From positions 11,843 to 75,842 of IMG/VR virus record IMGVR_UViG_3300037340_000044: 64,000 nt of DNA. The stretch is one strand, 5' to 3'. Numbering within the stretch: the stretch's first letter is position 1; every line of letters begins with the position of its first letter. Shown in pieces: positions 43,998-44,566 of the stretch. The DNA is from a virus. The notes beneath the pieces were generated by a model. The model was not told the DNA's origin. It worked only from the letters and a program-made list of their open reading frames with translations, and ran no database searches. The position numbers were made by a program, and so were the translations under genes.

Positions 43998-44231
43998 ATG
44001 AGGTATGCAATGGAAGGTCAAATGGCTTTGTGGTTGCGTCGGGAACGAATTGCAACTCAACTGATGCCGTTCTTTCTGCAACATGAATTCGACTCGGCAG
44101 CCGAAGATGAATATGAGGAAAAACTGACTAATGCCGCCCAGGGAGCTATCAATGCAGCCAGTATATTGCTTTCGCAACTGAAAGCCGTTGAGGACAACCC
44201 GAACATCACTCAGGGAGTGCTTTCACGATGA
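43998..44231 (+). CDS. hypothetical protein
   Basis: Ends in GVLSR like the upstream gene; start may be 44010. Confidence 0.5.
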   Translation: MRYAMEGQMALWLRRERIATQLMPFFLQHEFDSAAEDEYEEKLTNAAQGAINAASILLSQLKAVEDNPNITQGVLSR

Positions 44232-44566
44232 ACCGTCGCAGCTTTCTCGGTATGCTGGCAGCCGTGGCCAGCGCACTAGGATTCGGCAAACTTGCGGACG
44301 CTAAGCCGAAGGCGGTTCCGCATATCCTGAAATTCTGGTACTACGAGCAGGGCAACAACGCAAGTAAGACTGCAATATTGCAGGCCGCGAAAGACCAGTC
44401 CGACAAGGTGAACATCGCGGTTCCCTACGATCCGAACAACCCGAACCGGCGGACATTTGATGAACGGAGCAAGCGTCTGGAAGCGATCGTTAAAGAATGG
44501 GAATTCTTTAAGGCAAATGGCAGACCTCCGATCGATCCTGACGATTACGCCTGGGAAAGCATCTAA
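44228..44566 (+). CDS. twin-arginine-signal mini-protein containing a 40-aa portal fragment
   Basis: MNRRSFL..ADA signal; 44330-44450 matches portal 26881-27001. Confidence 0.8.
   Translation: MNRRSFLGMLAAVASALGFGKLADAKPKAVPHILKFWYYEQGNNASKTAILQAAKDQSDKVNIAVPYDPNNPNRRTFDERSKRLEAIVKEWEFFKANGRPPIDPDDYAWESI

Follow-up and report, generated by a model that had tools for sequence, protein, structure and literature searches.

Among phage morons whose products bear a signal peptide, superinfection exclusion is the commonest precedent, and T5 Llp, phi80/HK022 Cor, P22 SieA and TP-J34 Ltp are examples of exported or membrane proteins with this role. The locus described here, from a phage sampled in peat/permafrost, has several traits of these exclusion genes: its central ORF, a 112-aa frame denoted mini2 (44228-44566), is small, lies between structural genes, has an atypical GC content, encodes an N-terminal export signal and is missing in a syntenic relative. 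Unlike Llp, Cor, SieA and Ltp, to which it has no sequence similarity, mini2 carries a leader of the Tat type rather than a Sec or lipoprotein signal, and its mature part derives from the portal of this phage. It is also an atypical Tat cargo, being a phage ORFan of about 10 kDa that shows no cofactor motif, whereas the Tat pathway is mostly known to carry cellular enzymes with cofactors.

The portal provides the second point of comparison. In the T4 portal, the clip is the element between the stem helices, comprising three strands and a helix; it is the portion exposed outside the capsid, to which first the packaging ATPase and subsequently the neck attach (PMC4493910). Set against this domain (T4 gp20, PMC4493910; PF06074; PDB 8rka, 9knu), mini2 contains the strand-helix-strand, with the rest of the portal absent. 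Portals are also sensed by host defense: Avs/STAND sensors are cytoplasmic and reportedly bind whole folds directly, over extended interfaces (bioRxiv 10.64898/2026.01.04.697583). Like an inhibitor of Avs4 or Avs11, mini2 takes its sequence from the sensed protein, but its leader points to the wrong compartment, and literature searches found no decoy built from a portal fragment. Finally, two near-identical repeats of about 120 nt, one of them in a gene of the structural module, recall the template and variable repeats of diversity-generating retroelements (DGRs). We rejected the DGR reading given that the mismatches are not adenine-specific and are mostly synonymous; there is also no reverse transcriptase among the ORFs scanned.

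The window, that is, the whole 64,000-nt stretch of DNA that we analyzed, corresponds to positions 11843-75842 of a 75.8-kb IMG/VR contig, and all coordinates below refer to the window. The leader ORFs, orf77, the portal gene and the segments of these described below lie on the + strand, as do the Cys-repeat unit at 46239-46299 and the hairpin element at 43142-43183; one palindrome is assigned no strand. The mini2 frame, read from its first start codon, consists of a Tat leader, a copy of part of the portal clip and a 37-aa tail. The start codon of mini2 shares bases with the TGA that ends orf77, the ORF before it (ATGA), GGGAG is located 10 nt upstream, and the following gene starts 12 nt past the mini2 stop, preceded by GGAG. 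The ATGA overlaps form a chain running from a 178-aa gene through a 5-codon ORF (MKFFQ) and orf77 to mini2. In the same stretch, the C-terminus of orf77, ITQGVLSR (44204-44231), echoes LTSGVLSR of the 178-aa gene (43960-44001), and this shared T-x-G-V-L-S-R peptide is encoded by different codons, including an AGC/TCA serine switch.

The first 25 residues of mini2 (44228-44302) form a predicted twin-arginine signal peptide, as proposed in an earlier reading of this DNA made from the sequence alone. The N-terminus, MNRR(SFLG), is followed by a 16-residue uncharged region rich in Gly, Ala and Ser and then by K-L-A-D-A before K26. Residues 2-8, N-R-R-S-F-L-G, fit the Tat consensus S/T-R-R-x-F-L-K, and the h-region, SFLGMLAAVASALGFG, is followed by a basic c-region residue and an A-x-A site. 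The combination of RRxFL, a weakly hydrophobic Gly/Ala/Ser h-region, a basic c-region residue and A-x-A is that of Tat signals. One of two Tat models passes: TIGR01409 (TAT_signal_seq) gives 18.6 bits, above its curated cutoff of 16.7, while Pfam PF10518 scores 14.6, under its stricter cutoff of 22.7. The ESM Atlas neighbors of mini2, with low scores (0.78) that make them a lead only, include some proteins named as Tat signal proteins. Apart from the signal, mini2 has no family in PHROGs, Pfam or NCBIfam, and no known superinfection-exclusion or anti-defense family in these three collections matches it.

Downstream of the leader, 121 nt of mini2 (44330-44450) are an in-frame copy of portal codons 352-392 (26881-27001), with 113 of 121 nt identical and 8 mismatched; identity begins one codon earlier, at an AAA codon (44327/26878). 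The reading frame is the same in both copies, within the portal ORF at 25828-28686 and the 112-aa ORF at 44228-44566, so the in-frame portal copy noticed in the sequence-only reading holds in extent, coordinates and frame. Five codon differences, accounting for 6 nt, are synonymous (E, G, A, S and S, the last an AGC/TCC switch), and the two non-synonymous ones, L>F and S>T, are conservative; the mismatches are C/T, A/G, G/C, G/A, C/T, T/A and AG/TC. At the protein level, identity between the 40 copied residues and the strand-helix-strand of the phage's own clip is 95%, and the alignment between mini2 and the portal is limited to mini2 residues 34-78. A repeat search of the window recovers the pair as family D3 (131 nt, 91%), the sole long, high-identity dispersed repeat linking two coding regions, and all-against-all blastp in the window found no further pair like it. 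In mini2, part of an existing gene has clearly been reused in making a new one.

The donor gene (25828-28686) encodes a 952-aa protein that matches Pfam Portal_Mu (PF06074) at 1e-30, that is, a Mu-type portal, followed by C-terminal sigma-70 regions 2 and 4; its identification draws on Pfam, PDB 8rka and Foldseek. An AlphaFold model built from 18 family members finds its best Foldseek matches in the portals of JBD30, Mu and G20C. The model contains two long stem helices (323-347 and 403-422), and between them a strand (351-357), a helix (361-373) and two more strands (378-384 and 394-397); the second stem helix is followed by a disordered loop and then a 39-residue helix. Given that this is the canonical portal layout, the copied residues 352-392, encoded at 26881-27001, correspond to clip strand 1, the helix, strand 2 and the next loop. 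The mapping of the fragment on a portal model, which the sequence-only reading had suggested as a check, thus places it in the clip. The mini2 copy lacks the third and last clip strand and, having no stem, wing or crown either, mini2 cannot form a portal. Consistent with its being a fragment copy outside the Portal_Mu family, mini2 has no Pfam match at E 0.01, Portal_Mu included.

Besides the clip copy, mini2 may carry a short motif from the portal N-terminus. AVPHILKF (44312-44335) resembles portal residues 59-66 (ALPHILQF), with 19 of 24 nt matching; the score of this 11-aa piece was reached by 0 of 500 shuffles, and the match is not significant genome-wide (tblastn, E 7). The similarity of the mini2 tail to portal residues 393-660 is not above that of shuffles.

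The portal family has features of interest in their own right. The C-terminal extensions vary: sigma-70 regions 2 and 4 occur here and in P0005, and others carry Pfam labels for NUDIX (PF00293), ADP-ribosyltransferase (PF03496, PF01129), PI3/4-kinase (PF00454), PF13563 and PF18823 (precomputed Pfam labels on the portal proteins P0005, P0008, P0010, P0012-P0015 and P0017). These extensions look like portal-fused cargo or effector domains. In the portal homologue P0006, an insertion of about 370 aa, at alignment columns of about 486-883 in the loop past the second stem helix, starts with Cys and ends in ...TGN followed by Thr, and on these sequence features looks like an intein. Ahead of the portal gene, the leader at 25819-25858 is 88% identical to a 40-nt leader at 20657-20696 (repeat D12), and a B12-binding radical SAM protein is encoded directly upstream of the head module (20701-22179).

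A repeat of this kind raises the question of an assembly chimera, in which portal reads were joined into an unrelated locus. In the DNA runs, the contigs do break within a 53-nt identical run (the X1 piece starts at 44421), as they do at repeats longer than the assembler's word length. However, the mini2 version of the sequence has eight private variants, and the locus recurs in independent samples: Logan contigs cover it in permafrost of 2019, peat of 2018 and an RNA library made from peat in 2024, which belong to three further studies. The contigs from these studies (X1, X3 and X4) show zero differences within 44228-44566, and there is no variation inside this interval across four runs. Moreover, the 344-nt contig from the RNA library (X4, 44127-44470) begins in orf77, takes in the start codon and the entire patch, and continues into the private tail, in a library where depth over the portal bin 26864-27527 is 0; on the tail side the contig extends 20 nt past the patch, less than the 31 nt required there. 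An assembly chimera, which the sequence-only reading had named as one way in which its proposal could fail, is therefore practically excluded. The same contig is a weak hint of transcription, given that it may derive from DNA.

The sequence-only reading had also seen protein-level selection, or capture from a related phage, in the excess of synonymous differences, and this excess withstands testing. Eight random substitutions cause 6.1 amino-acid changes on average, with two or fewer in only 0.15% of trials (P = 0.0015), and NG86 estimates for patch versus portal are dN 0.043 and dS 0.19. When the copy was simulated as neutral and the portal as constrained (omega 0.05), at most two amino-acid changes among 8 nt differences were seen in 0.7% of runs (P = 0.007), and a stop codon was gained in the patch in 29% of runs; an omega of about 0.2 fits the patch. 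As for the donor, SDKV and DPNNPNR are common to mini2 and the phage's own portal, whereas P0003, an 83% identical portal, has SNKV and DPSQPNR, which indicates that the patch was donated by the portal of this lineage or by an allele very near to it. Where mini2 has its two replacements, the phage's own portal and P0003 both have Leu and Ser, so that L>F and S>T are derived in mini2. A neutral copy would be rejected if the duplication occurred within the lineage (P about 0.007), whereas a recent capture from a slightly diverged co-infecting portal would produce an equal pattern without constraint on mini2.

These numbers bear directly on the reading that the patch is a neutral recombination scar, that is, an ectopic piece of portal in a dispensable ORF, in frame by chance and yielding a functionless peptide, with the synonymous excess due entirely to selection acting on the portal gene or to divergence of the donor allele. 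The prior for the same frame and strand is about 1 in 6, and AlphaFold of mini2 alone, from the single sequence, gives no confident fold (pLDDT 46), both of which speak for such a scar. Against it stand the rejection under in-lineage duplication and the stop codons expected in 29% of simulations, and equally a dS of about 0.19, which means that the patch is not brand new while the 112-codon frame is still intact, as well as the tight coupling of the mini2 start and stop to the neighboring genes. We consider a neutral scar somewhat unlikely, and return to it below where further evidence weighs on it.

The search for relatives yielded little, which in itself is compatible with a scar, there being no conserved relative with the patch. 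In a comparison covering 5.8 billion clusters and 1.84 billion representatives, mini2 is a singleton, and its matches in protein collections are otherwise only portals, via the patch, and one small protein, P0018. No relative carrying the patch was found in the databases searched, an exact-word search for the patch had no match in viral or genome contig collections, IMG/VR scans via the portal or the 271-aa neighbor returned no close relative, tblastn of the portal against GenBank phages gave no match, and a metagenome scan returned L008 alone, with a distant portal. Two leader-only loci, L005 and L006, were rejected as homologues, being internal GRRGFLGMLAAV stretches of large unrelated proteins; L007 matches mini2 residues 1-35, as do L005 and L006.

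P0018, the only homologue of mini2, is a 57-aa protein encoded on a 1-kb Logan contig, and it lacks the patch. Its leader is 68% identical to that of mini2 over residues 1-37, and it has VPHVL as a counterpart to AVPHILKF. In a global alignment of the two proteins, a single gap falls exactly over the patch, after which R-R-T-F-D-E of mini2 aligns with R-L-T-A-D-E of P0018; the tail similarity is not significant alone (P 0.18), and P0018 has no significant match to the portal profile (E 0.11). The comparison with P0018 is suggestive of a patch inserted into an older small gene.

A further perspective comes from G001, a complete 72-kb relative in which homologues of the 178-aa and 271-aa genes (174 aa and 249 aa, respectively; identity of 44% for the 271-aa gene) lie 65 nt apart. 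In G001, a 67-aa ORF and the 174-aa ORF overlap. There are no counterparts of mini1 (an additional leader ORF, see below), orf77 or mini2 in G001, and no leader ORF of the mini1/mini2 type occurs anywhere in G001 or in L008. With its slot empty in a complete relative, mini2 behaves like an inserted accessory gene, that is, a moron: it is inserted between genes that are adjacent in G001, and its GC content is unlike that of the neighboring genes. The acidic 77-aa orf77 (43998-44231), also missing from the G001 slot, was probably co-inserted with mini2 and appears to be translationally coupled to it. The GC content of orf77 is 0.48 and that of the mini2 tail 0.49, below those of the genome (0.59) and of the flanking genes (0.62-0.63), whereas at third codon positions the patch, at 0.78, is like the portal, and the mini2 tail is at 0.50. 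The composition thus suggests a foreign insertion backbone that was later patched from the resident portal gene. Together, the empty slot in G001, the P0018 leader without a patch, and the low-GC backbone contrasting with the portal-like GC3 of the patch support the fragment capture proposed in the sequence-only reading. As for a promoter of its own, no sigma-70-like one was found on the + strand; mini2 is coupled translationally to upstream ORFs, and a terminator-like hairpin precedes mini1. The neighboring genes have no matches in PHROGs or Pfam.

The second leader ORF, mini1 (43202-43447, 81 aa), lies 1 kb upstream of mini2 behind a strong RBS, AAGGAGG, and, like mini2, is a singleton. The two ORFs are paralogous in their leaders, which are 50% identical, while that of mini1 matches neither Tat model (TIGR01409, PF10518). 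The cargo of mini1 also has recognizable sources. It contains a single unit of the Cys repeat found in a 636-aa downstream ORF (45602-47512), the closest unit being at 46239-46299 (D5, 80% over 61 nt), and its C-terminus resembles the portal crown: residues 54-81 align with portal residues 504-531 (encoded at 27337-27420) in a comparison of mini1 with the portal family profile (hhalign, E 5.8e-6, probability 85%). A 42-nt terminator-like hairpin element (43142-43183), identical to 15795-15836 (repeat D7), marks the mini1 insertion at its left edge. Across both leader ORFs, 2-3 of the 4 recognizable cargo pieces derive from the portal, a gene that accounts for 3.8% of the genome, and this argues against purely random patching. 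The presence of virion-protein pieces in a second leader ORF likewise counts against the neutral scar. It also opens a broader reading, in which mini1 and mini2 form a family of Tat leaders with virion fragments, their cargo selected as mimics of the phage's own virion surfaces through repeated fragment capture; at the Tat translocon or in the periplasm, such proteins would bind the partners of these surfaces, interfering with related phages or regulating the phage's own assembly. We regard a family of this kind as improbable.

Several other features of the window deserve mention. The 636-aa ORF contains five or six Cys-repeat units of about 33 aa (C-x8-NRY-x-S-x-DCG) with Ser-rich linkers; it has no family match in Pfam or PHROGs and is probably a tail fiber or receptor-binding protein. 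A 939-aa protein (1194-4013) with a BNR/sialidase-like repeat domain is possibly a second receptor-binding or depolymerase protein. In the interval 48514-52082, a 763-aa protein includes a glycosyltransferase family 25 domain, and the next gene encodes a protein whose N-terminus is a paralogue (35% identity) of the last 190 aa of the 763-aa protein. A tract of imperfect GCT/GAT triplet repeats, longer than 400 nt (D1, 63562-63996) and reaching the contig end, encodes an Ala/Asp-rich run in the ORF at 63107-64000.

The patch also contains a palindrome, TGCAATATTGCA (44371-44382), with its twin in the portal gene at 26922-26933. The palindrome TGCAAWWTTGCA occurs at 15 sites (9232-55939) against 0.53 expected, an approximately 30-fold over-representation, and at 10 of the 15 sites its first T occupies the third codon position of the longest frame open on the + strand; in this phase it reads Ala-(Asn/Ile/Lys)-Leu-(Gln/Arg) in many unrelated proteins. 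Some intergenic copies form a hairpin of 18-20 bp followed by a T run and are terminator-like. The two long, high-identity dispersed repeats of the window, D3 and D7, are both centered on the palindrome, which may promote ectopic patching; such a recombination-prone site would speak for the neutral scar.

The abundance of these sites, one of them in the middle of the patch, and the palindrome-centered exact 42-nt repeat D7 bordering mini1 are equally what would be seen if the object maintained were a DNA-level element, TGCAATATTGCA and its flanks serving as a protein-binding, hairpin or recombination site, with the reading frame incidental. The remaining sites, however, share only 12-18 bp, not 121 nt, and the patch begins and ends at codon boundaries, which are also the points at which the P0018 alignment breaks. 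A bias towards synonymous positions and an AGC/TCC serine switch are not expected of such an element, and the palindrome is insufficient as an explanation for 121 nt of identity with the differences at synonymous positions. A DNA-level element is accordingly very improbable.

A further reading, along the lines of the sequence-only one, makes the patch a portal mimic acting in the cytoplasm or at the membrane face: the clip copy would bind partners of the clip (terminase, the neck adaptor, neighboring portal subunits, or a host sensor such as Avs4/Avs11) and would counter related phages by acting as a decoy, a dominant-negative or an exclusion factor, while its Tat leader would tether it or dispose of it. 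Such a mimic would exploit an exposed surface on which the packaging ATPase and the neck dock (PMC4493910) and which belongs to a known trigger of Avs4 and Avs11 (bioRxiv 10.64898/2026.01.04.697583); portal-derived pieces in both leader ORFs and the apparent maintenance of the patch at the protein level would fit as well. The export signal, however, takes the protein out of the compartment shared by portal, terminase and Avs; a clip competitor would poison the phage's own packaging too; and no anti-defense or defense family in Pfam or PHROGs matches mini2. Avs recognition, furthermore, is described as operating at the level of the fold, for which 40 residues without one clip strand make a poor mimic. 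The mimic reading is, in our estimate, decidedly improbable, and the link to Avs/STAND defense drawn in the sequence-only reading is not supported, with cytoplasmic, fold-recognizing sensors on one side and a 40-aa copy behind an export signal on the other.

The reading we prefer is that mini2 is a young, lineage-specific exported accessory gene with a co-opted portal module. Its ancestor would have been a small gene for a twin-arginine leader joined to a short peptide and nothing more, much like the one that encodes P0018 in a related phage, and this ancestral gene together with orf77 would have been inserted between two conserved genes of the tail module. About 123 nt of the phage's own portal gene, corresponding to clip strand 1, the helix and strand 2, would then have been copied in, in frame. 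mini2 is most likely translated in coupling with orf77, and its product is predicted to reach the membrane and periplasm via the host Tat pathway, with probable cleavage after A-D-A releasing an 87-aa mature protein in which the portal-derived module would be kept at the protein level. There, the module might serve as a ready-made foldable unit or binding surface in an envelope-side accessory role, such as superinfection exclusion. We give the whole chain about an even chance of being right. Weighing against it are the singleton status of mini2, the sub-cutoff score with PF10518, the failure of mini1 to match either Tat model, the low-confidence fold, the missing third clip strand and the lack of lysogeny genes among the ORFs scanned. 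The part of the explanation that concerns origin is much firmer than the chain as a whole, whereas translation, export and the cleavage site are predictions from sequence features, and the role is proposed by analogy with other signal-bearing morons.

Viewed by its construction, mini2 would be a moron built by partial gene duplication, a known kind of gene. In this case, the donor, a relative resembling the recipient and the junctions are all legible in the sequence, which makes it an unusually clean example of the birth of a small phage gene, here by in-frame transfer of a foldable sub-domain from an essential structural protein to a predicted exported peptide. If the patch is neutral, the locus still documents palindrome-associated ectopic patching within a phage genome. 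If the portal-derived part is functional, virion surfaces would be reusable as soluble or exported modules, which would bear on superinfection exclusion, the control of assembly and the origin of phage ORFans.
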